Shown: piece after piece, positions 31,015 to 58,715 of the stretch
Numbering within the stretch: position 1 is the first letter of the stretch
How the letters are laid out: each line of letters begins with the position of its first letter
Virus record (IMG/VR): IMGVR_UViG_3300048590_000661
Span: 32,001-96,000 of that record
From: a virus
Length of the DNA stretch: 64,000 bases
Direction: 5' to 3' (one strand)
Position numbers and translations under genes: made by a program
The notes under the pieces: generated by a model
What the model saw: the letters and a program-made list of their open reading frames with translations, nothing else
The model's database searches: none
What the model was told of the DNA's origin: nothing

Positions 31015-32220
31015 TTAAAAACCAGCTTGCCCTTCAAGCTCAACTAAATTATACCATTCTACTTTCATTTCATCCCAATTAAATTTAGCGTATATTGATG
31101 CCTTGTCACCATTCCTATTTTTACTACTATAATATTTGAAGTAATTTTCTCCATTAATGGTTACAGCACTACTAGCTGTCATATTGACTGCATCTTGCCC
31201 AATACTATATGCTAACCCTAAATCTTCTGGCGTAGGTTCATCCGTTTTTGCTGCCCCACGATTCCCTTGTGTAACTGCAAAAACAGGGATTTCATGGTTA
31301 AGCGTAAATAATCTAACGTCCCTGCTAACTTCACCTAATTGTACCGTTTTTTGTGATTGGTCAATTGCGTTTCCTTTACCCATTAAATGTAACCCATCAA
31401 TAGCAATAACATCAATTGGTGTATCTAAGTTCTCTAAAATAGGCAATAGTTGACTAGGGTGTGAAATTGTGCCAGCTACCTTAATACGTGGTCCGGTGTT
31501 CGTCTCAGAGTTAAGTGCTACTAATTTATTTCGCTGCTCATCTGTAAATTTTAAGTTGCGGAATAGTTTAGGATTAATCCCTAAACGCATAGCATCTAAC
31601 TTTGCAATAAATTCTCTAGGTGCCATTTCATTAGAGAATACTAAGATATTTTGGTTTTGTGTTTTGTGTAATTTATGTAGTAGATATAATAATAGATTAG
31701 TTTTACCATTCCCTAGCGCACCAAAGATAATATTATAATCACTACTGTGTACTCCACCGAATGTATCATCAAACCATTTAATACCAAATGGGATACGAGC
31801 AGATTCGTCTAGATGTAAATTGCGGTCAAAATCATCATAATCAATAATATCAATTCGTATTGGCTGGCATTTTTTTGTAATGTCTAACAAAAATCCAGGT
31901 TCGTAAATATTTTGTCCACTTTGTTGTGCATTGAGTATTTGGCTCTTAATATACCCTTCTTGTCTATCATTTATGATTGTATCTACAGCGTATTCCATTG
32001 GAATATCAGTTGCTAAATGGTCAATCCTAAAATGCTTATATTTTTCTTTGAATATATCTAATGAAGGTCGTTGGCCATAAATAGTAGCGAAGTCTTCGAT
32101 AAATTTAATATATTGTTTTTCAACTTCATTAAATAGTACTGGTGGGATTTTCTTTAAGAAAGTATATTCTTTTTTATCTTGTAGACCACGAACTAATAAG
32201 CTATTAAATGTGTACACCAT
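31015..32220 (-). CDS. dnaB: DnaB-like replicative helicase
   Basis: Walker A GALGNGKT, FSNEM, IAIDGLHLM, TQGNR, IGQDA, KNRNG. Confidence 0.85.
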   Translation of the reverse strand: MVYTFNSLLVRGLQDKKEYTFLKKIPPVLFNEVEKQYIKFIEDFATIYGQRPSLDIFKEKYKHFRIDHLATDIPMEYAVDTIINDRQEGYIKSQILNAQQSGQNIYEPGFLLDITKKCQPIRIDIIDYDDFDRNLHLDESARIPFGIKWFDDTFGGVHSSDYNIIFGALGNGKTNLLLYLLHKLHKTQNQNILVFSNEMAPREFIAKLDAMRLGINPKLFRNLKFTDEQRNKLVALNSETNTGPRIKVAGTISHPSQLLPILENLDTPIDVIAIDGLHLMGKGNAIDQSQKTVQLGEVSRDVRLFTLNHEIPVFAVTQGNRGAAKTDEPTPEDLGLAYSIGQDAVNMTASSAVTINGENYFKYYSSKNRNGDKASIYAKFNWDEMKVEWYNLVELEGQAGF

Positions 32221-45938: not shown

Positions 45939-46856
45939 CTATCCGATACTACATGCGGACCATCCGCAATTAGTACAGTGTTCACAACCTTCAGCAAATA
46001 CTACGTTAGAATTATCACACCCACATTTAGAAGTATTTAAGTTAGTAGGGTTTAACTCGCTAAATTTCTTCTTAATTTCAGTGCCATTATTAAGAACTTG
46101 TGATGTACGACTGCCATCACGATATACTGTAATACCTTTACAGCCTAATTTCCAAGCCTTGATAAATCCTTGATAAACATCTTCAACAGTGGCATCATTT
46201 GGTAAATTAATAGTTTTACTAACACCACTATCAACATATTGTTGCGCTACAGCTTGTGTATTAATATGCTCATCAATAGAAACAGACTTAGGGCCAATTA
46301 CACTGCGGAAATACTCTTTATCGTTATCTTCATGGCTGATATAATAAGTTTGCCCTCGCTCATCTATTCTGGTAAAAGAACCAGAAAAAATAGGCTCACA
46401 ACCACCACCCAATAAATTAGCAATATGGCTAATACTGCCAGTTGGTGCAATTGACTGGCAAGTAATGTTGCGTCGATTTACATGAATACATTTTTCTGGA
46501 ACACCACGCAATCTACCTAACATTTCTGATTCATTATAACTTACTTGTTGAATTTTGTCAAGAATTTTAGCCAATAGATCTAATGCATCTTGGCTACCAT
46601 ACGCTAATTTCATTTTTAATAGTAAATCAGCATAACCCATAATACCTAACCCAATTGGGCGAAATTGCTCGTATTTATTTTTGAACTTATCATTAGGAAA
46701 AGTGTTAGTAGTACCAACGTTATCTAGAAAAATTGTTGTACGTCTAATTACTCGCTCTAATTCGTCGTAATCAAACTCCCCATTTACAAAGAAATCTTTG
46801 TGGTTTAAATTAATGCTACCTAAATTACAACTTAGGTATGGTGGTAATGGTTGCTC
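45939..46856 (-). CDS. nrdJ: class II (B12-dependent) ribonucleotide reductase, 3' exon
   Basis: EQPL...CNLGSINL, RPIGLGIMG, IAPTGSIS, VDSGVSKTIN, KGITVYRDGSR, C-terminal Zn ribbon GC..C..CGWSAC. Confidence 0.9.
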   Translation of the reverse strand, partial: EQPLPPYLSCNLGSINLNHKDFFVNGEFDYDELERVIRRTTIFLDNVGTTNTFPNDKFKNKYEQFRPIGLGIMGYADLLLKMKLAYGSQDALDLLAKILDKIQQVSYNESEMLGRLRGVPEKCIHVNRRNITCQSIAPTGSISHIANLLGGGCEPIFSGSFTRIDERGQTYYISHEDNDKEYFRSVIGPKSVSIDEHINTQAVAQQYVDSGVSKTINLPNDATVEDVYQGFIKAWKLGCKGITVYRDGSRTSQVLNNGTEIKKKFSELNPTNLNTSKCGCDNSNVVFAEGCEHCTNCGWSACSIG

Positions 46857-47730
46857 CATTTTACTTATATTACTATAAGGATTGGACTATATCTTCATAA
46901 TTTTTAATACTTGTATAGTATTTAAAAATATGTTCCGCACTCGATAAAGTATTGTCAAATCTTTTGTCAGTTTTGTAAAATAACCAAGTCTTGTATTGAA
47001 AAGTAGGTGTGATATATGGGAAAACAAGGTCAATAAATCTTTGCAATCCGTTGCCAATAATTTTAACTCTTGGGTTCCTACTACGACCAGTATTACTAAC
47101 TACTGTTTTGAATGTCAGATTGTATTTTTCATTCATAAAATTAGAGAAATAATCCAATTCATTAAATGAAAAGCTTTCTAAACATAACCACCCAATATTT
47201 TGTATTTTATCTGCTCGCCTATTTTTTGCATGTTCTAAATATCCATCACCCATCCATATATATGCCAAACATCTAGCATCAATTTTATGTACAACATCTT
47301 TCGTAAGTTCTTTCTTACCATCTGGATAACACCAGTTCGCAAACTTATCGAAGTATGCTGGATAACTAGCCACCATTTTATATGTGTACACACCGAATCG
47401 TTTATCGAAATAATCATTTTTCCAAATCTTTTTATCACTATTTGGAAATTGAATAAATAAATCAGCACAGTGATTGCGAAAATCTGAATATTTAGATGTT
47501 AAACAAAACCTATTTTTGTAATCAATATACCCATCACTCAATACAAGACCTAATACAGACTGTTTAATTTCACTTGACGTTAACATTCTTTTCCTTTGAA
47601 TAGAATTATTTATAACTTTATCTTTAGTCTCTGAACCTTCCTTAACGTATTAAGGATTGGCTGCTGATTGCCCGCTTAGGGTTTCCAGCAATTCACGGAA
47701 TTTTTTACATGCGGCAAGCGTTTACCGATG
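46857..47730 (-). mobile_element. group I intron (874 nt) in nrdJ
   Basis: P AATTGCTGGAAA (47682-93), Q AATCAGCAGC (47660-69), R GTTCAGAGACTAAA (47624-37), S AAGATATAGTCC (46884-95), P9 with GTAA loop and terminal G. IGS GCCGCATG pairs with exon CATGTGGT, giving U-G at the splice site. Splicing restores NPCG|EQPL. Confidence 0.93.
46873..47586 (-). CDS. intron-encoded LAGLIDADG homing endonuclease
   Basis: VLGLVLSDGY and LAYIWMGDGY motifs; lies between R and S and reads through S. Confidence 0.85.
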   Translation of the reverse strand: MLTSSEIKQSVLGLVLSDGYIDYKNRFCLTSKYSDFRNHCADLFIQFPNSDKKIWKNDYFDKRFGVYTYKMVASYPAYFDKFANWCYPDGKKELTKDVVHKIDARCLAYIWMGDGYLEHAKNRRADKIQNIGWLCLESFSFNELDYFSNFMNEKYNLTFKTVVSNTGRSRNPRVKIIGNGLQRFIDLVFPYITPTFQYKTWLFYKTDKRFDNTLSSAEHIFKYYTSIKNYEDIVQSL

Positions 47731-48474
47731 ACCACATGGATTAGTAGCATAAATCTTTTCACCAGCTTCTTTATATGGTGTATTATTATTAATGGTATCA
47801 GAAAACAATAACCCTGGCTCACCATTTGACCAAGCATTAAGAGCTAGCTTATAAAGTAACGCTGCTTCTTTGCTTGTGTCATTACTAACCGCTTTTTGCA
47901 TAAATTCATCTGTAGTCATCATTGACTGATTAAAATTATATAAATCACCCTCTTGACGATTCTTTTTAAGATTAATGAAGTCCTCAATATTAGGGTGTTC
48001 ACAATCTAATGTAACCATGAGCGCCATTCCGCGAAAACCTGACTGCGTCATCATATGCATACCTTTTGACACTAATTCAGCATATTTTAATGGACCATAC
48101 GCGTACCCATGACTACTGCCATTTACTTTAGCCCCTTCATATCGAATAAAACTACCAGTAAACCCGCAACCACCGCCACGTTTAGCTACTTCAGCAATAT
48201 CTTTAAGTGTTTCAAAATGGTCTTCTAAAGTATCTTCAGTTGGTCCAACTACAAAACAAGCTTGTTTACCAGCATTAGGTTTGCCACTATTCACTAAACA
48301 AGGTGAATTAGGTAAAAACTTTAAGGTTAGCATATCGTTATATACTTCTGAATAATATTCTGGCTCATCGCCTAAAATATTGTCATTATGCACACGACTA
48401 ACTAACCCTTCCCAATTTTCCCCTGGCATATAATATCGTTGTTTCAATAACTTTTCAGCATTTTCAGATAACAT
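47731..48474 (-). CDS. nrdJ: class II ribonucleotide reductase, 5' exon
   Basis: FLPNSPCL, ACFV, GGGCG, RG.ALM, HP.I.DFI, FN.S, GEPG, TNPCG. Confidence 0.9.
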
Positions 48475-53259: not shown

Positions 53260-54015
53260 TTATGACTCACTTTCTGAATAGTATTTATTATACTCTATTA
53301 ACAACTCTTCTCGATACTGGTACTCATGACCTAACCATGATTCTAGGTCGGCTAGGGTGTTGGATAGCTTGGGTAAATAAATTATATGAAAATTTCTAAT
53401 GTGACAATCTTCACATAAAGTAATTAGGTTACTTTCTACACCCCTTAATTCTGGATAAGTAGAGAAGTCGTAAATGTGATGCACGTTTAGATCACCACCA
53501 TATTTAGTACAGTTTTGACAAGTGTAATTATCACGATCACGTATTCGTGGTAAAATTGTTTCAAATATTCTCCCACGAATTATTGAATGTAGTGGTGTTA
53601 TACCACCTTGCCAATTAGAACCTAATTCGCCAGTTCTAGAGCATGACCCACAACAAAAACATTGCGATTGGCTTCTTAAATTACTTAATAAATTGTTGTA
53701 TATATCCCCACATCTTAAACATCGACAAGTAAATTGACGTTGACCACATCTTTTTTCAATTTCTTCTATAATTTCCCAATCTTTTATCACTTTGCCAGGA
53801 GGCATATCTATTCGTAAGTTGAGCATAGCACAAGGTTTGCATGAAAACCCTTTGTGTGGACGCACTAAGTTACTTATTTTTAATTTATATAAATCACCAC
53901 ACAGTAAGCATTCACACAAAAATAACCGCTCTTTTCCTGTTTTATCTAATTCTTCGGTCACTTTCCAGTTTTTAAATACATCACCAACATTTATTGCTCG
54001 TTTTCTATTAGGCAT
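53260..54015 (-). CDS. HNH homing endonuclease, copy 3 (A-A-HNH)
   Basis: Two W...EE..K...F.C.CL.C modules; WQGG; RDNYTCQNC...HHI...NLITLC..CH. Confidence 0.85.
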   Translation of the reverse strand: MPNRKRAINVGDVFKNWKVTEELDKTGKERLFLCECLLCGDLYKLKISNLVRPHKGFSCKPCAMLNLRIDMPPGKVIKDWEIIEEIEKRCGQRQFTCRCLRCGDIYNNLLSNLRSQSQCFCCGSCSRTGELGSNWQGGITPLHSIIRGRIFETILPRIRDRDNYTCQNCTKYGGDLNVHHIYDFSTYPELRGVESNLITLCEDCHIRNFHIIYLPKLSNTLADLESWLGHEYQYREELLIEYNKYYSESES

Positions 54016-54030
54016 TATTATTAATAAATA

Positions 54031-55116
54031 TTATCCCTCACTTTCCATAAAAGAACGAAGTGCATACAAGTTACTAAATGGTACAATTCCAAATTCAGGG
54101 TGCAATACCCAACCAATAGCTGTTGTCTTATTACTTTCGCTGAACCCACGTCGCTTGCTATAATCATCATATCGCTTATAAGTATTTGTTAAAAAGGCAT
54201 AATTAGTTTCACCACGAATATTAAATTCTCTAATTAAACTAGATGAATGAATATGTGCCCCTGCCCAAATTTTAGCATCATATGACATGTTTTTGGCGTT
54301 CCGCTCAATTGCGTGAGTAGGATTAAATTGTGAAAATCCATTCCAAATATGACGTAGCACCACACCGCAATGATTAAAATATGGTGTTTTAATACTCAAA
54401 AATAATTCATCATTATCATAGAAACAATTACTCTTAATCTCATTTAGCATATTTAAATTAACATCTAATCCAGAATATGCCTCGCTCCACGCGTTATGAT
54501 TACCCGAAACGAATGCAATTAATCGGTCCTTAATTAGATTCATATACTTACGAGAAATTGCCGCTTCTTCCTCAATAGTGAATCGTCTGTTATGAGAAAT
54601 ACTAGTTGTCCAGTTGCCAATAAAGTTATTACTTAAATCACCATTATGTAAAAACCAACAGTTATCAATACTATTAACTAACTCTGCTTCTGTAAACATT
54701 CCCTTAATATCGGTAGCAGTACCTTTTCCACCTCCTAGGTGCTGATCGCTGGCTAGCACAAATGCCACTGGACCATTAGTATCAATTTCAAAAGTATTAC
54801 TCTTAGCTAAGTTAGCTCTTTCGTCTACTTTGTCAAAGTGACTTACCATCTCCGCATAGAGCTTTTCTTCATCGATTTCATTAGCTTGAATTTCAACCGT
54901 TAAACCAGACATATGAGTAACAGTCTTTTTCACTACCTCACTAATCGCTAAATTAAGCTCACTACTCTCTTCTTGCCGTCGCCGCCATTGGCGTAAACTA
55001 TACCCTAATTCTGGTAGTTTTTCTTGTAGATGTTCATATACTGCTTTTTTAGTAGGGAAACTATTAATGGCGAATTGTGAAAGATATTCGATTACGGCTT
55101 GCTCATTATATTCCAT
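54031..55116 (-). CDS. calcineurin-like metallophosphoesterase
   Basis: SDQHLG, NGDL, SGNH, RH, GAHIH motifs. Start refined to MEYNEQ. Confidence 0.8.
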   Translation of the reverse strand: MEYNEQAVIEYLSQFAINSFPTKKAVYEHLQEKLPELGYSLRQWRRRQEESSELNLAISEVVKKTVTHMSGLTVEIQANEIDEEKLYAEMVSHFDKVDERANLAKSNTFEIDTNGPVAFVLASDQHLGGGKGTATDIKGMFTEAELVNSIDNCWFLHNGDLSNNFIGNWTTSISHNRRFTIEEEAAISRKYMNLIKDRLIAFVSGNHNAWSEAYSGLDVNLNMLNEIKSNCFYDNDELFLSIKTPYFNHCGVVLRHIWNGFSQFNPTHAIERNAKNMSYDAKIWAGAHIHSSSLIREFNIRGETNYAFLTNTYKRYDDYSKRRGFSESNKTTAIGWVLHPEFGIVPFSNLYALRSFMESEG

Positions 55117-55135
55117 GTTAGTTAATTTATCTTTC

Positions 55136-55366
55136 TTATGATCTGTATACAATTGGTAATTTGTACGCCATCTTAATCGGCGTAATTCCATCTAACTTAG
55201 AAGCTAAATATTCTACAAAACACTTAGGGCAAAATACGCTATCTTCTTCATCGATAATAATTTGATTCTTGTAATCTACTCGCATAGTAGCGGTAATATA
55301 TTCATTTTTATCAGCGTCATGTAAAGCCCCACATGATTCACACTTGACTGCTTGAATTGTTTTCAT
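55136..55366 (-). CDS. small Zn-binding protein
   Basis: CESC...CPKC. Confidence 0.55.
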   Translation of the reverse strand: MKTIQAVKCESCGALHDADKNEYITATMRVDYKNQIIIDEEDSVFCPKCFVEYLASKLDGITPIKMAYKLPIVYRS

Positions 55367-55367
55367 T

Positions 55368-55559
55368 TTATTCTACCTCATAATATGGGTTATATAATTC
55401 ATCTTCCAATTCATATTCACCATTACAAATGTCACAACAGTTTTCACACACATCTTCATTTTTGCTATTTGTATGAATATCTTCTAACTCTTTCCAATTA
55501 GGTAATCTTAGTTGTTTGCTGCATTCGTAGCAGTAGATACTTCCATCAATTTTTGGCAT
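55368..55559 (-). CDS. small Cys-rich protein
   Basis: CYEC...CENCCDIC. Confidence 0.55.
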   Translation of the reverse strand: MPKIDGSIYCYECSKQLRLPNWKELEDIHTNSKNEDVCENCCDICNGEYELEDELYNPYYEVE

Positions 55560-55561
55560 AA

Positions 55562-55921
55562 TTACAAACTTTCTAACTTAGATTCTGTATTGAACAGAAT
55601 ATTATTTACAGACTCACCATGAACTAAAAACCAGAACCGCCTATTATAATTAGCTAATCTATTTACATAAAGGTTATATAAATTATGCTGCCGATTATCG
55701 AGTATTGTAAGGGTTAGCGTTTCATTGCTACTTTTTTCTATATATTTTAATATTTGCTTTTGTGTGGGTAGATTAAACTCTTTAGTTTTAGTAGTTAAAA
55801 TAACATGGTTTAAATAAATATTGTCAGTTGCTATTCCTTTATGAATTAAAATAAACCCGTTGTAATTTGTTACATACTTACTGTCTAAAGTATTAATTAA
55901 TTCATAGCTAATTTGGTTCAT
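55562..55921 (-). CDS. hypothetical protein
   Basis: 119-aa ORF just downstream of the tRNA-like 3' end. Confidence 0.5.
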   Translation of the reverse strand: MNQISYELINTLDSKYVTNYNGFILIHKGIATDNIYLNHVILTTKTKEFNLPTQKQILKYIEKSSNETLTLTILDNRQHNLYNLYVNRLANYNRRFWFLVHGESVNNILFNTESKLESL

Positions 55922-55941
55922 ATTAATGTTTTCTTATTCAG

Positions 55942-56430
55942 TGAGCTAGAAGAGAGTCGAACTCTTACGCCAAGTGTCGGTAAAACTATGGCAATTAGGA
56001 CATAATAATTGTAAATTTTCAATCACATTATTCGTTCTATCACCGTCAATGTGATGTAATTCTAACTTAATTGGATAATCCAACCAAGTTGTAAGCTTAC
56101 ATTCTTCGCATTGATTGCCACGCTCGTTAATTAGATGTTTACGAAAATTATACGCTCTGGTATAAGTAGACCAATCTTTTAATTGCCTGCCCTTACTCCA
56201 TAATTGTCTAGTCCAATGATCTGTATTTACATTTAATAATTGTAATTTACGATTCATATTAGCATAATTACCACCAACAGGTTTTAGTCCTACGCCCTTG
56301 AGTAACCCTGCCATTGACTTAACATTCTTTGCAATTTCTATTATATCTTCATCTGTATAATTAACAATCCGCTTTGGCATCTAAAGTAAATTTTACTCCT
56401 TAATCACGTCTACCATTCCACCACTAGCTC
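55942..56430 (-). ncRNA. tRNA-Leu-like cloverleaf with the anticodon loop replaced by an HNH endonuclease ORF
   Basis: 5' half GAGCTAG-TG-GTGGAATGGTAGACGT-G-ATTA(A)GGA (56430-56397). 3' half TCCTAAT-T-GCCA..TGGC-GT-AAGAG-TTCGACT-CTCTT-CTAGCTC-A (56000-55942). Perfect 7-bp acceptor stem and 5-bp T stem, Leu-type D loop and long variable arm; no anticodon and no encoded CCA. Confidence 0.8.
55946..56380 (-). CDS. HNH endonuclease (different family from the five paralogs), embedded in the tRNA-like RNA
   Basis: YTDEDII...GLKPVGGNY N-terminus; CEEC...LELHHIDGDRTNN...NLQLLCPNCHS. Confidence 0.9.
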   Translation of the reverse strand: MPKRIVNYTDEDIIEIAKNVKSMAGLLKGVGLKPVGGNYANMNRKLQLLNVNTDHWTRQLWSKGRQLKDWSTYTRAYNFRKHLINERGNQCEECKLTTWLDYPIKLELHHIDGDRTNNVIENLQLLCPNCHSFTDTWRKSSTLF

Positions 56431-56460
56431 AACTTAGCTATTTACTCGCCTATAGCCACT

Positions 56461-56489
56461 ATTTTACCACAGGTTGAAAAGTTTGTCAA
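56461..56489 (-). promoter_or_regulatory. sigma70-type promoter driving the tRNA-like/HNH transcript
   Basis: TTGACA-17-TAAAAT with TGTGG; predicted start about 24 nt upstream of the cloverleaf G1. Confidence 0.75.
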
Positions 56490-57064
56490 GGGGCAACTTT
56501 ATGGTCTGGATAATAGGTATAATAAGCAATTAATAGTTCATTTCTGTATTTATATTCGTAACCTAACCAGCTTTCAAGATCAAATAGTGTATTAGTTTTA
56601 TTATTTGGATATATTTTATGAAAATCATCAACATGACAGTGTTTACATAAAGTAATGAGATTGCTTTCTATACAACTTAAGTCTTTATAATTTTGCATAT
56701 CATAAATATGATGGCAATGTAATTCAGTGTTTTTAGCACCACAATTTTGGCATGTGTTACTATCTCTTTTGCGAATTCTAGACCTCATTTTTTTAATTAT
56801 TTTTTTTCTGTCTTTTTCATTTTTTATTGCAATCCCACCTTTCCAAGAATTAGAGCTGTTACCAGAAGCCTTTTCCTTTCGATAACACCCACACGATCTT
56901 GTACTTCCCCTGGAAAGACTATTACCAACTATTATTTTTTCATTGCCACAATCGCAAATACAATTATATTCCCATTGTTGGTGTTTATTCACAGAATGTT
57001 TACTAATAACAGTTATCCTTCCAAATTTTTGCCCTGTCAAATCTTTACAGCTTGAATAAGTCAT
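56486..57064 (-). CDS. HNH homing endonuclease, copy 4 (B-HNH)
   Basis: DLTGQKFGRI...TRSCGC; WKGG; RDSNTCQNCG...HHI...NLITLC..CH. Confidence 0.85.
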   Translation of the reverse strand: MTYSSCKDLTGQKFGRITVISKHSVNKHQQWEYNCICDCGNEKIIVGNSLSRGSTRSCGCYRKEKASGNSSNSWKGGIAIKNEKDRKKIIKKMRSRIRKRDSNTCQNCGAKNTELHCHHIYDMQNYKDLSCIESNLITLCKHCHVDDFHKIYPNNKTNTLFDLESWLGYEYKYRNELLIAYYTYYPDHKVAP

Positions 57065-57084
57065 AATACCCCAATATAGTACTC

Positions 57085-57167
57085 ATGAGACACTAAATTA
57101 CAAGTTCAGCGCTTATGTTTTACGCCTGAATTTTTATTATTCTGGTAGTTGTAATTTAGTGTCTCAT
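57085..57167. repeat. 19-bp perfect inverted repeat
   Basis: ATGAGACACTAAATTACAA (57085-57103) and TTGTAATTTAGTGTCTCAT (57149-57167). Confidence 0.8.
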
Positions 57168-57250
57168 CTGTCTTATTTTTGATTTTATAGGTGTAAATCA
57201 ACAAGACAGATAGCTATTTTTATCTGTCTTGCATCTGTCTTATCTGTCTT
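57166..57250. repeat. iteron-like ATCTGTCTT repeats, candidate replication origin
   Basis: Direct copies at 57166, 57222, 57233 and 57242 and an inverted copy at 57203, abutting the D5-like helicase stop. Confidence 0.7.
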
Positions 57251-58715
57251 GTAAATTACTTAAACATCTTGCTTGTTTGCCATTAATATAAGACTTCGTA
57301 TTAATGCACCCCTTTTGAACAAAATATTGTGTAAACTCTCTTTTATATCGTGGTTGTTCACAATTTTCTAAACACCAATCTTCATACTCTTCATAAAGTT
57401 TACTAAAGAGAACTAAGTCGTTTCTATCTTTAGTAATTGTGTAATTGTACTCAGTAAGGAAATGCCCAATAGTATCTTGTTTGGCTACCATTTCATTAAG
57501 GGCATCAACTAATACTTGTGGGATATCCGGCAGTCTACCTAAGCTAAAATATTCGATAGCACCTTCAACAAACCAATGTAAAATACCTTCAATTTCTGAA
57601 ATTAGTTTATCTTCACGATCAAAGTCAATTACACTATAACCTTTAAATACTGGAATAATAATAAACCGATTAAAAAATGCAGGGTCTAGTACATCACCAA
57701 TAATCTCAAAGTTTGAAGCAATTACTAACTTAAATTTAGGCTTAATTAGTATTGGTTGCTTATTCTTTTTAGCAGCAGTAATCTTTTCTCTACCGCTAAT
57801 ATCTTTAATTAATGCCGCATTATATGTAGCATTTCTATCTGGCTCACTAACCGCCACTACTCGCTTAAATCTACTTTCAGCTAAATCAAACCCTTGATCA
57901 TTGTTTTTGCTTCTGTCTCGCGAAATAGAATTAAAGGGCAATTTAAAAAACAACTCATCAAATAATTTATCTAGGATATTAATAAATAGTGATTTACCAG
58001 AATCTTTTTCGCCAGTTAAAAATAGTGATTTCTTTTCCCTATTCCCACCAATTAATAGATACCCTAATAATACTTTAATGAAGTTTTTTACTTCTGGAAC
58101 ATCATAGTGTTTAATTAATTCAGATAGTTGTTTTTCCCATAATGAATAGTCATAAGCTTTATTTTGTTCATATGGAATATCAATCATGTAATTAATCATA
58201 TAACTAGAAGAGTGTGGTAATAATTCACCAGTCTTTAGATTAATAATTCCACTAGTAGTATTAAATAATGTGTCTAATTCGTTAGCCTCAAATACTTCTT
58301 CTTTAATATTTATTCTAGTTTCCTTCAAAAAGAATATAGTAATATTATTAATCCTATTAGTGGTTATTTCACAATTAGCTAATAGACTATTTAACTTGCT
58401 AATTTTATCTTTTAATTCTCGTTTATTATTATCATCTAAATTTTGAGAATAAAGAATGCTATTAAGTTTACTAAGTTCTGAAATTACTAATTTTGCTCGT
58501 AATTTTAATGTTTCAATAACACATTGTTGCAACTTATCTTTAGCTTGATATGGTGTCCAATATTTTTCATAAACAAGTAAAGTACTAGTTAAATCAATCT
58601 CTTTAAATAAATACCCATAAATTTCATATAGACATTGGTAATGCCCAAAATCATTTTCACTACTGTACAATAATGTGTCACGTTGCTTTTCACTTAGACC
58701 AACTTCGTTATTCAT
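57240..58715 (-). CDS. D5/P4-family SF3 helicase (no obvious primase domain)
   Basis: D5_N-like (FN...G.INLKTGEL..H), Walker A GEKDSGKS, V.VSE, IK.ISG.E.I.A, ASN, and a C-terminal winged-helix-like region. Confidence 0.85.
   Translation of the reverse strand: MNNEVGLSEKQRDTLLYSSENDFGHYQCLYEIYGYLFKEIDLTSTLLVYEKYWTPYQAKDKLQQCVIETLKLRAKLVISELSKLNSILYSQNLDDNNKRELKDKISKLNSLLANCEITTNRINNITIFFLKETRINIKEEVFEANELDTLFNTTSGIINLKTGELLPHSSSYMINYMIDIPYEQNKAYDYSLWEKQLSELIKHYDVPEVKNFIKVLLGYLLIGGNREKKSLFLTGEKDSGKSLFINILDKLFDELFFKLPFNSISRDRSKNNDQGFDLAESRFKRVVAVSEPDRNATYNAALIKDISGREKITAAKKNKQPILIKPKFKLVIASNFEIIGDVLDPAFFNRFIIIPVFKGYSVIDFDREDKLISEIEGILHWFVEGAIEYFSLGRLPDIPQVLVDALNEMVAKQDTIGHFLTEYNYTITKDRNDLVLFSKLYEEYEDWCLENCEQPRYKREFTQYFVQKGCINTKSYINGKQARCLSNLQDR

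Follow-up and report, generated by a model that had tools for sequence, protein, structure and literature searches.

The window analysed here is a 64-kb stretch of viral DNA (positions 32,001–96,000 of the IMG/VR virus record IMGVR_UViG_3300048590_000661), and all positions below are window coordinates unless marked as genome positions. The record is a single sequence of 124,598 bp with 33% G+C. Between positions 56,489 and 55,942, on the minus strand, a promoter, a leader, the 5′ part of a tRNA-Leu gene, an open reading frame (ORF) for an HNH protein of 144 amino acids (aa) and the 3′ part of the tRNA-Leu gene follow one another in this order (Table 1). A reading made from the letters alone (hereafter, the sequence-only reading) had seen in this arrangement an mRNA shaped like tRNA-Leu. 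Our analysis of the locus and of its homologs suggests that it is most likely the wreck of a tRNA-Leu gene split by a homing-endonuclease gene.

The 144-aa protein matched the Pfam families HNH_3 (27.4 bits; cut-off, 24.8) and HNH (24.0 bits; cut-off, 21.4), and it keeps the HH...N...H and CxxC...CxxC motifs. Homologs were abundant (1543 at E ≤ 0.001), the best of them being 60–72% identical over 91–100% of the protein. When 33 proteins including the 144-aa HNH were aligned, 24 columns were invariant, and the 144-aa protein carries the invariant residue in every one of them. The consensus of the aligned members reads LLCPNCHSxTDNWRxxK, in which C127, N129, C130, H131 and T134 are invariant and R138 is nearly so. 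Family conservation ends at W-R-(K); the tail S-S-T-L-F after K139 is not conserved. The last six codons, K-S-S-T-L-F, and the stop codon overlap the T arm and the acceptor strand of the tRNA part, with the stop codon TAG falling inside the acceptor 3′ strand.

The features of a tRNA-Leu found around this ORF are an acceptor stem, a D arm with G18 and G19, a T arm with a T-psi-C loop and the discriminator A73. Where relatives have a GTG/CAC D stem, the one here pairs through a single G-C and two G-T wobbles. A 16-nucleotide (nt) D-arm pattern, TGGYGRAANGGYAGAC, had a single match in the window, at 56408–56423, against 0.00 expected from 100 shuffles, and the exact D-arm 16-mer, TGGTGGAATGGTAGAC, was present in 9 of 160 homolog loci; for several of these nine, though not for all, it was checked that the 16-mer belongs to a tRNA-Leu gene or exon. 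An nhmmer search with a profile of 53 distinct phage tRNA-Leu sequences had its top match in the entire genome at the 3′ part of the locus (E = 0.065). In addition, GGCGT (55971–55967, within the W-R codons) stands directly before the T arm and matches the usual end of a tRNA-Leu variable arm. Taken together, the acceptor stem, D arm, T arm and discriminator are more than chance, and the locus clearly descends from a tRNA-Leu gene.

Table 1 Features of the interrupted tRNA-Leu locus and of the other genes discussed, in window coordinates.
Feature	Position	Strand	Basis or remark
HNH homing-endonuclease gene, 144 aa	55946..56380	-	Pfam, homologs
tRNA-Leu 5′ remnant, tRNA positions 1–26	56405..56430	-	Sequence, D-arm pattern, homolog loci
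Acceptor 5′ strand GAGCTAG	56430–56424	-	Followed by U8 G9 (TG)
D arm GTG-GAATGGTAGA-CGT, then G26	56421–56406 (D arm)	-	Sequence
Junction/leader ATTAAGGAGTAAAATTTACTTTAG	56381..56404	-	Sequence; AAGGAG at 56401–56396, 15 nt before the ATG
tRNA-Leu 3′ remnant	55942..55966	-	Sequence, nhmmer model positions 54–84
T arm AAGAG-TTCGACT-CTCTT	55966–55950	-	Stem 5/5 paired, loop TTCGACT
Acceptor 3′ strand CTAGCTC	55949–55943	-	7/7 Watson-Crick with 5′ strand GAGCTAG
Discriminator A73	55942	-	Sequence
Sigma-70-type promoter: TTGACA, 17 nt, TAAAAT; TG preceding the -10	56461..56489	-	Sequence, promoter scan
Untranslated leader, ~24 nt	56431..56460	-	Start inferred ~7 nt past the -10 hexamer
Second HNH gene, 192 aa, unrelated-looking	56486–57064	-	Directly upstream; Pfam HNH 22.4 bits
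Ribonucleotide reductase-like N-terminal ORF	47722–48474	-	Ends ...ATNPCG
ORF of 237 aa between the ribonucleotide reductase-like halves	46873–47586	-	
Ribonucleotide reductase-like C-terminal ORF	45939–46859	-	Begins MEQPLPP

None of the programs used recognised a tRNA at the locus under default settings. ARAGORN at default, with or without introns, called no tRNA gene in the window; the sequence-only reading had proposed the search with introns as a check of its cloverleaf. Rfam likewise gave nothing at gathering threshold in the window and, at E ≤ 10, no tRNA or intron family in 54000–58000, where only two unrelated weak matches appeared. An ARAGORN call at c[55941,56430] requires a lowered threshold, at which nine other, unchecked calls are made too, and it has a class-I fold unlike the one drawn by the sequence-only reading. 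When the halves were joined artificially at 1760 pairs of points, ARAGORN at default called a tRNA in 512 of the joins; these bear at least 20 different anticodon labels and no junction stands out. The arms are therefore of tRNA grade, whereas the anticodon region is undefined. The sole tRNA that ARAGORN called in the whole genome is Ile-UAU, just beyond the window (genome 96051–96124).

Upstream of the remnants, the consensus promoter and the leader of about 24 nt are where the sequence-only reading had placed them, as is the AAGGAG ahead of the ATG. The promoter scored 11/12 and ranked top of 14 promoter-like sites in 55400–57200. Nine sites in the genome, this one included, match TTGACA-N16-18-TAnAAT, and TTGACAAA and TGTGGTATAAT are common to most of them.

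The sequence-only reading had found every arm of a tRNA-Leu in order. Its acceptor, D arm, T arm and A73 stand, but its anticodon stem and variable arm coincide with conserved HNH codons and may or may not derive from the tRNA. The pairings ATTA(A)GGA/TCCTAAT and TGCCA...TGGCGT can be drawn, with an implied variable region of 27 nt; the 3′ strands of both, however, are codons of the family-conserved C-P-N-C-H-S-x-T-D-x-W-R (here, C-P-N-C-H-S-F-T-D-T-W-R). The choice of codons is unremarkable: of 147 distinct homolog genes, 29 have CCTAAT, 42 have TGCC (Cys-His) and 5 have TGGCGT. In the junction between G26 and the ATG, no anticodon stem-loop could be drawn. The same reading had the conserved end of the HNH protein spelled by the tRNA arms, so that protein and fold constrain the same bases. 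K-S-S-T-L-F and the stop do lie in the T arm and acceptor, but that tail is lineage-specific. Because conservation ends at W-R-(K), the alignment limits any such shared constraint to the non-conserved tail.

To place the locus among its relatives, 80 loci encoding homologs were drawn from viral contigs, 80 from metagenomes (together n = 160) and 80 from bacterial genomes, and contexts were counted over the 149 loci with distinct HNH genes. This collection, also suggested by the sequence-only reading, yielded tRNA-Leu halves on both sides of the HNH gene in 30 of the 149. An intact tRNA-Leu lay at most 100 nt upstream in 32, an intact tRNA-Leu abutted or overlapped the stop codon in 27, and 13 had an intact tRNA-Leu nearby on the opposite strand; a group-I-core-like sequence was found within 400 nt in 69. 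At least one of these tRNA-Leu or core contexts was present at 131/149 loci. Judged by these contexts, the HNH family is tied to the tRNA-Leu genes of phages and bacteria.

Many of the split loci proved to be intron-bearing tRNA genes. With introns allowed, ARAGORN at default called a tRNA with a 678–945-nt intron spanning the HNH gene at 42 of the 160 viral and metagenome loci; 33 were called Leu and the remaining nine were mislabelled. Similarly, in the bacterial genomes, 34 of 80 loci gave such a call, 27 of them as Leu(taa). About 25 more loci carry an ORF-less intron of 180–240 nt in the tRNA just upstream of a free-standing HNH gene. The intron junctions in the homolog loci follow ...GACTT on the 5′ side and lie between ...GTAAG and AAAATCC on the 3′ side, which puts the group I introns at the anticodon of tRNA-Leu(UAA), between U34 and A35. 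Rfam Intron_gpI passed gathering threshold in 4 of 20 tested loci, and a core profile seeded on these four intron segments matched 74 of the 160 loci, either directly after the ORF or split around it. The profile matches thus show two ORF positions within the intron. An ordinary intron in a normal tRNA, which the sequence-only reading had named as an outcome contrary to its proposal, is therefore the norm of the family, but it is not what the window holds.

Several further observations concern this family. The intronic HNH ORF occurs in two places and both orientations, for example at L020, L033, L102, L004, L067, L163 and L172 (loci L001–L160 and L163–L242), and some of the intron-bearing bacterial loci lie on multi-megabase contigs. 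The free-standing form is found in annotated phages: in Synechococcus phage S-CRM01 (g201), a tRNA-Leu directly precedes the homolog, and in Rhodococcus phage Dorin (gp94), the homolog lies between tRNA-Glu and tRNA-Gly. Among the 118 top homologs with the C-terminal motif, only two others, P0109 included, have a tail that a T arm could encode. P0109, available as a peptide only, has a tail that suggests read-through of a whole tRNA. Protein P0023, likewise available as protein only and 65% identical, ends in ...FRNRKRLVPTVEFESTL, which a T arm could encode in one frame about 45 nt past the His codon; by this ending it may be a second case like the window locus. At L013 and L246–L248, no stop codon separates the ORF from the tRNA-Leu that follows, so that the ORF extends across the entire tRNA and acquires a tail such as ...RRVGSSPTFGIPL. 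HNH proteins predicted by gene callers at loci of this kind may therefore be too long.

The window locus stands apart from the split loci of its family. From the codon of the catalytic His to the T arm there are 21 nt in the window, compared with 99–482 nt in the other split loci that were detected strictly (n = 33). A survey of every locus gave 268 HNH motifs and, within 125 nt of them, 47 T arms, 44 of which belong to intact tRNAs; the three T arms outside intact tRNAs are that of the window locus, at 21 nt, and those of L099 and L093, at 55 and 99 nt. The core profile gave no match at the window locus, and the earlier view that a group I core would not fit there is correct. An anticodon loop is missing from both sides of the insert, the 5′ part lacks the ...GACTT end, and no junction after ...CUU or before AAAA is present. 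The insert consists of the ORF plus 16–24 nt. As an intron-bearing tRNA-Leu(UAA) gene the locus fails: it has neither a cloverleaf with UAA nor a group I core.

Elsewhere in the family, HNH genes have left scars in tRNA-Leu genes. At L045 and L109, a 5′ fragment of a tRNA-Leu, reaching to the anticodon loop, and the matching 3′ fragment of the same tRNA-Leu flank the HNH gene together with an intact tRNA-Leu(taa), without a ribozyme. At L082, which encodes a protein of 60% identity, as judged by eye, a 5′ tRNA-Leu fragment lies about 60 nt before the ATG and an unrelated intact tRNA-Leu overlaps the stop; a search for a 3′ fragment matching this 5′ fragment found none. At L099, a 3′ fragment with variable arm, T arm, acceptor and A begins at the stop codon. 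As these four scars show, imprecise copying of the HNH gene into or next to tRNA-Leu genes is a recurrent event.

On this evidence, we think it likely that a tRNA-Leu gene of the phage was destroyed by a homing-endonuclease gene that targets tRNA-Leu genes, and that the tRNA is dead. From where the HNH gene lives, we infer that the 144-aa protein cleaves intact tRNA-Leu(UAA) genes site-specifically near the anticodon. In the course of events that we propose, the HNH enzyme would cut a tRNA-Leu(UAA) gene near the anticodon and repair of the break would copy the nuclease gene in, where it would replace tRNA-Leu positions ~27–47, between positions 1–26 and ~48–73. On this reading the anticodon arm and the true variable arm are gone and, with no ribozyme present either, no tRNA can be made; the former tRNA promoter now drives the nuclease gene, whose reading frame simply continues into the T arm and stops within the acceptor strand. 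The 3′ junction probably lies between TGG and CGT-AAGAG, because TGGCGT occurs in only 5 of the 147 homolog genes, whereas tRNA-Leu variable arms often end in GGCGT. Among the possibilities raised by the sequence-only reading, that of a homing nuclease which fused into the tRNA allele it targets has gained most from the homologs: the family is tied to tRNA-Leu at 131 of 149 loci, is often intronic and leaves fragments behind. A one-off decayed insertion, which that reading had set down as the outcome that would refute a tRNA-shaped mRNA, also fits the window locus.

As to how the gene arrived, we lean, with some reserve, towards a free-standing HNH cassette having been copied, directly and imprecisely, into a break in the tRNA-Leu gene of the phage, because the closest relatives are free-standing. 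The gene could also have come by way of an intron-bearing tRNA-Leu(UAA) gene with the HNH gene near the 5′ end of the intron, from which one deletion removed the ribozyme together with exon positions 35–47 and so fused TGGCGT, the W-R codons, with the GGCGT that closes the variable arm. The spacing from tRNA position 1 to the ATG speaks for this deletion, being 50 nt here, 55 nt in the intronic locus L096 and 67–70 nt in the intronic loci L106, L020, L036 and L053; in those intronic loci the core comes directly after the ORF, and the TGG/GGCGT microhomology at the junction fits a deletion. Yet the 5′ part does not end in the ...GACTT typical of 5′ exons, and the closest relatives (L001, L002, L008 and L082; 60–61%) are free-standing beside intact tRNA-Leu genes, the only intronic ones being L004–L006 (57%), whose ORF sits at another place in the intron. 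We therefore regard the deletion as possible but rather unlikely. Two other origins were rejected. Separate deletions in two flanking tRNA-Leu genes were set aside, since the 7/7 complementary acceptor points to a single gene, and a bulge-helix-bulge (archaeal-type) intron was set aside, since the promoters are of the bacterial sigma-70 type.

Other explanations concern what the locus does now. Several observations weigh against a simple wreck. The identical 144-aa protein, T-arm-coded tail included, is found on three contigs (its own and two others), and the allele thus persists. Both remnants are remarkably clean, with no mismatch in the acceptor or T arm (the D stem keeps its wobbles), as would be expected either of a recent event or of a fold under selection. 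The ATTA right after G26 and the TAAT right before TGCC are in the correct tRNA register, and TGCC...GGCGT matches the usual borders of tRNA-Leu variable arms. By our own estimate, the coincidence of register alone has a chance of roughly 1–3%, which with TGCC in 42 and CCTAAT in 29 of the 147 homolog genes is not trivial; the match was noticed post hoc, with one bulge allowed and a 'variable arm' of 27 nt. The exact 5′ junction could not be placed. In ten further split loci, Rfam Intron_gpI had no match at E ≤ 0.001, although our own core profile finds a core in them; for these loci the label 'group I' comes from that profile and from characteristic motifs. Finally, no relative of the phage was found that would show an intact 'empty' allele or decay over time: blastn against 50,697 phage records gave one 68-nt match only, at the neighbouring HNH gene; with the 491-aa primase/helicase-like protein and a 386-aa protein as queries, exact-word scans of viral contigs gave no phage relative; tblastn with the 491-aa protein reached 26% identity at most; and an exact 31-nt pattern from the 3′ junction had no match in viral contigs.

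One of the other explanations is a functional tRNA-ended mRNA, in which an acceptor/T-arm minihelix, matured by RNase P and 3′ trimming and given CCA and perhaps leucine, stabilises or gates the nuclease mRNA. The perfect 7-bp acceptor, perfect T arm and A73 are what it calls for, both the minimum-free-energy and the centroid structure predicted for the 489-nt RNA close the acceptor helix, there is a strong promoter some 24 nt upstream, the allele is on three contigs, and ATTA/TAAT and TGCC/GGCGT keep the tRNA register. Against this, the T arm is absent from the predicted fold, the energy of this fold is unremarkable (z = -1.56; matched by 6 of 100 shuffles), and ribosomes would presumably unwind the T arm and acceptor, since the last six codons and the stop lie within them. 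The 3:70 pair is G-C, not the G-U of transfer-messenger RNA (tmRNA), and neither ARAGORN (-m, 0) nor Rfam called a tmRNA. The arrangement is also unique, with such a close fusion at none of the 267 other HNH motifs, and the pairings drawn for the anticodon stem and the variable arm fall on conserved protein codons. The processed, CCA-added and perhaps leucylated mRNA of the sequence-only reading thus found no support in the fold or among the 268 HNH motifs, and we consider such a function improbable. Little more can be said for a version in which selection kept the clean ends, so that an accident of the homing event left a minihelix closing across ~440 nt and a protected, possibly leucine-charged nuclease mRNA; we would give it only a slim chance. 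If it were true, a tmRNA-like topology would have been born of a homing accident and would stabilise or time the expression of the nuclease.

That the tRNA is still made, the insert being removed by unrecognised splicing (by a small ribozyme of a new kind, by protein-dependent cutting and ligation or by a trans-acting ribozyme), seems very improbable to us. The flanks are intact and the phage has a group-I-core-like sequence elsewhere (47624–47702, in a split ribonucleotide reductase gene), but neither side of the insert has an anticodon loop, the 512 positive joins with their 20 or more anticodon labels show no preferred junction, no intron family matches at the locus, and the insert is fully filled by a protein gene of normal family length. 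A chance resemblance or an assembly artefact would agree with the silence of ARAGORN and Rfam at default. We regard either as next to impossible, because the D-arm pattern is expected 0.00 times in shuffles, 9 of 160 loci share its 16-mer exactly, with a tRNA-Leu identity checked for several of them, the acceptor pairs 7/7, and the identical protein with its T-arm-coded tail occurs on three contigs.

The destroyed tRNA-Leu gene that we favour has parallels in several known systems. The intronic homolog loci share both host gene and insertion point (5′ exon ...CUU, 3′ exon AAAA...) with the tRNA-Leu(UAA) intron of cyanobacteria and plastids, a group I intron in the anticodon loop reportedly described by Xu et al. 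in 1990 and Kuhsel et al. in 1990. Motifs of the homolog loci (AAUUCGG..., CCGAGCCAAG and GUAGAGACUAGAC) look like what we take to be the IC3 type of Azoarcus and Anabaena. The window, in contrast, has neither the ribozyme nor the anticodon loop of that intron. To our knowledge, classical tRNA-Leu introns are without an ORF; unlike them, the introns of the homolog loci carry an HNH gene in two places and in either orientation. A nuclease that is encoded in an intron and directed at a tRNA's anticodon region has the same kind of home and presumed target as the present family and differs in using another tRNA. No intron surrounds the window gene, and the likeness noted here is one of location.

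Free-standing homing-endonuclease genes in phage tRNA clusters, such as T4 SegB, are described in two papers (PMC13096335, PMC2988022). In that arrangement a nuclease gene is wedged between tRNA genes and its ORF abuts or overlaps a tRNA, as in many members of the HNH family. Such free-standing genes leave the neighbouring tRNAs whole, however, whereas in the window one tRNA is split around the gene. SegB itself is a GIY-YIG enzyme and not an HNH one. A free-standing homing endonuclease in the ribonucleotide reductase gene of an Aeromonas phage was reportedly described by Friedrich et al. in 2007 ('Genes in pieces'). There, as in the window, a homing endonuclease without intron or intein splits its host gene; the split gene, going by the title, keeps its function, while a tRNA without an anticodon arm cannot decode. 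With tmRNA, the window shares a topology in which tRNA-like 5′ and 3′ ends (acceptor and T arm) surround an internal ORF. It has none of the G3:U70 pair, pseudoknots, resume codon or tag of tmRNA, and its ORF has a start codon of its own and encodes an ordinary enzyme of 144 aa.

Homing genes in tRNA clusters, tRNA-Leu(UAA) introns, an anticodon-region nuclease and the splitting of a host gene without an intron are already described. A 2014 review states that every phage group I intron known at the time was located in a protein-coding gene, even though phages have many tRNA genes (PMC3984707). Our full-text literature search, outside which most subscription journals lay, found no report of HNH-bearing tRNA-Leu introns in phages. 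New at the window is a ribozyme-less homing-endonuclease gene inside a tRNA gene, with a frame that ends in the T arm and acceptor; the pattern at the level of the family may be less known. The window is the clearest case that we found of a nuclease gene lying directly in its presumed target without a ribozyme. The HNH family as a whole appears in four settings, free-standing, intronic, as a cassette with a replacement tRNA, and naked in the gene, as in the window. Such a series could make the union of homing-endonuclease genes with introns, long debated, directly testable.

The surroundings of the locus offered additional observations. Nine near-identical consensus promoters of the form TTGACAAA...TGTGGTATAAT occur in the genome, for example at genome 102111(+), 91069(-), 88489(-), 76882(-) and 71811(-), and a similar promoter, TTGACAA...TGTGGTAAACT, lies about 75 nt upstream of the lone intact tRNA gene, Ile-UAU. 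The stop codon of the upstream 192-aa HNH gene falls within the -35 hexamer of the promoter at the locus, and the two nuclease genes (192 aa and 144 aa) form a tandem after a primase/helicase-like gene at 57240–58715. In three regions (L021 2074–2446, L053 550–933 and L074 2042–2526), phage contigs with members of the HNH family gave matches to other structured RNAs: there are tmRNA genes (Rfam, 126 and 101 bits), and one contig has a match to GOLLD RNA below threshold (81 bits; gathering, 150).

The genome contains one significant match to the core profile, at window positions 47624–47702 (E = 1.4e-7), 8 kb from the interrupted tRNA-Leu gene, where Rfam at gathering threshold is silent. It falls within a ribonucleotide reductase-like gene that is split (45939–48474, minus strand) into N- and C-terminal ORFs with the 237-aa ORF between them. 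Given the profile match and this gene order, the insert is probably a group I intron with a homing-endonuclease gene.

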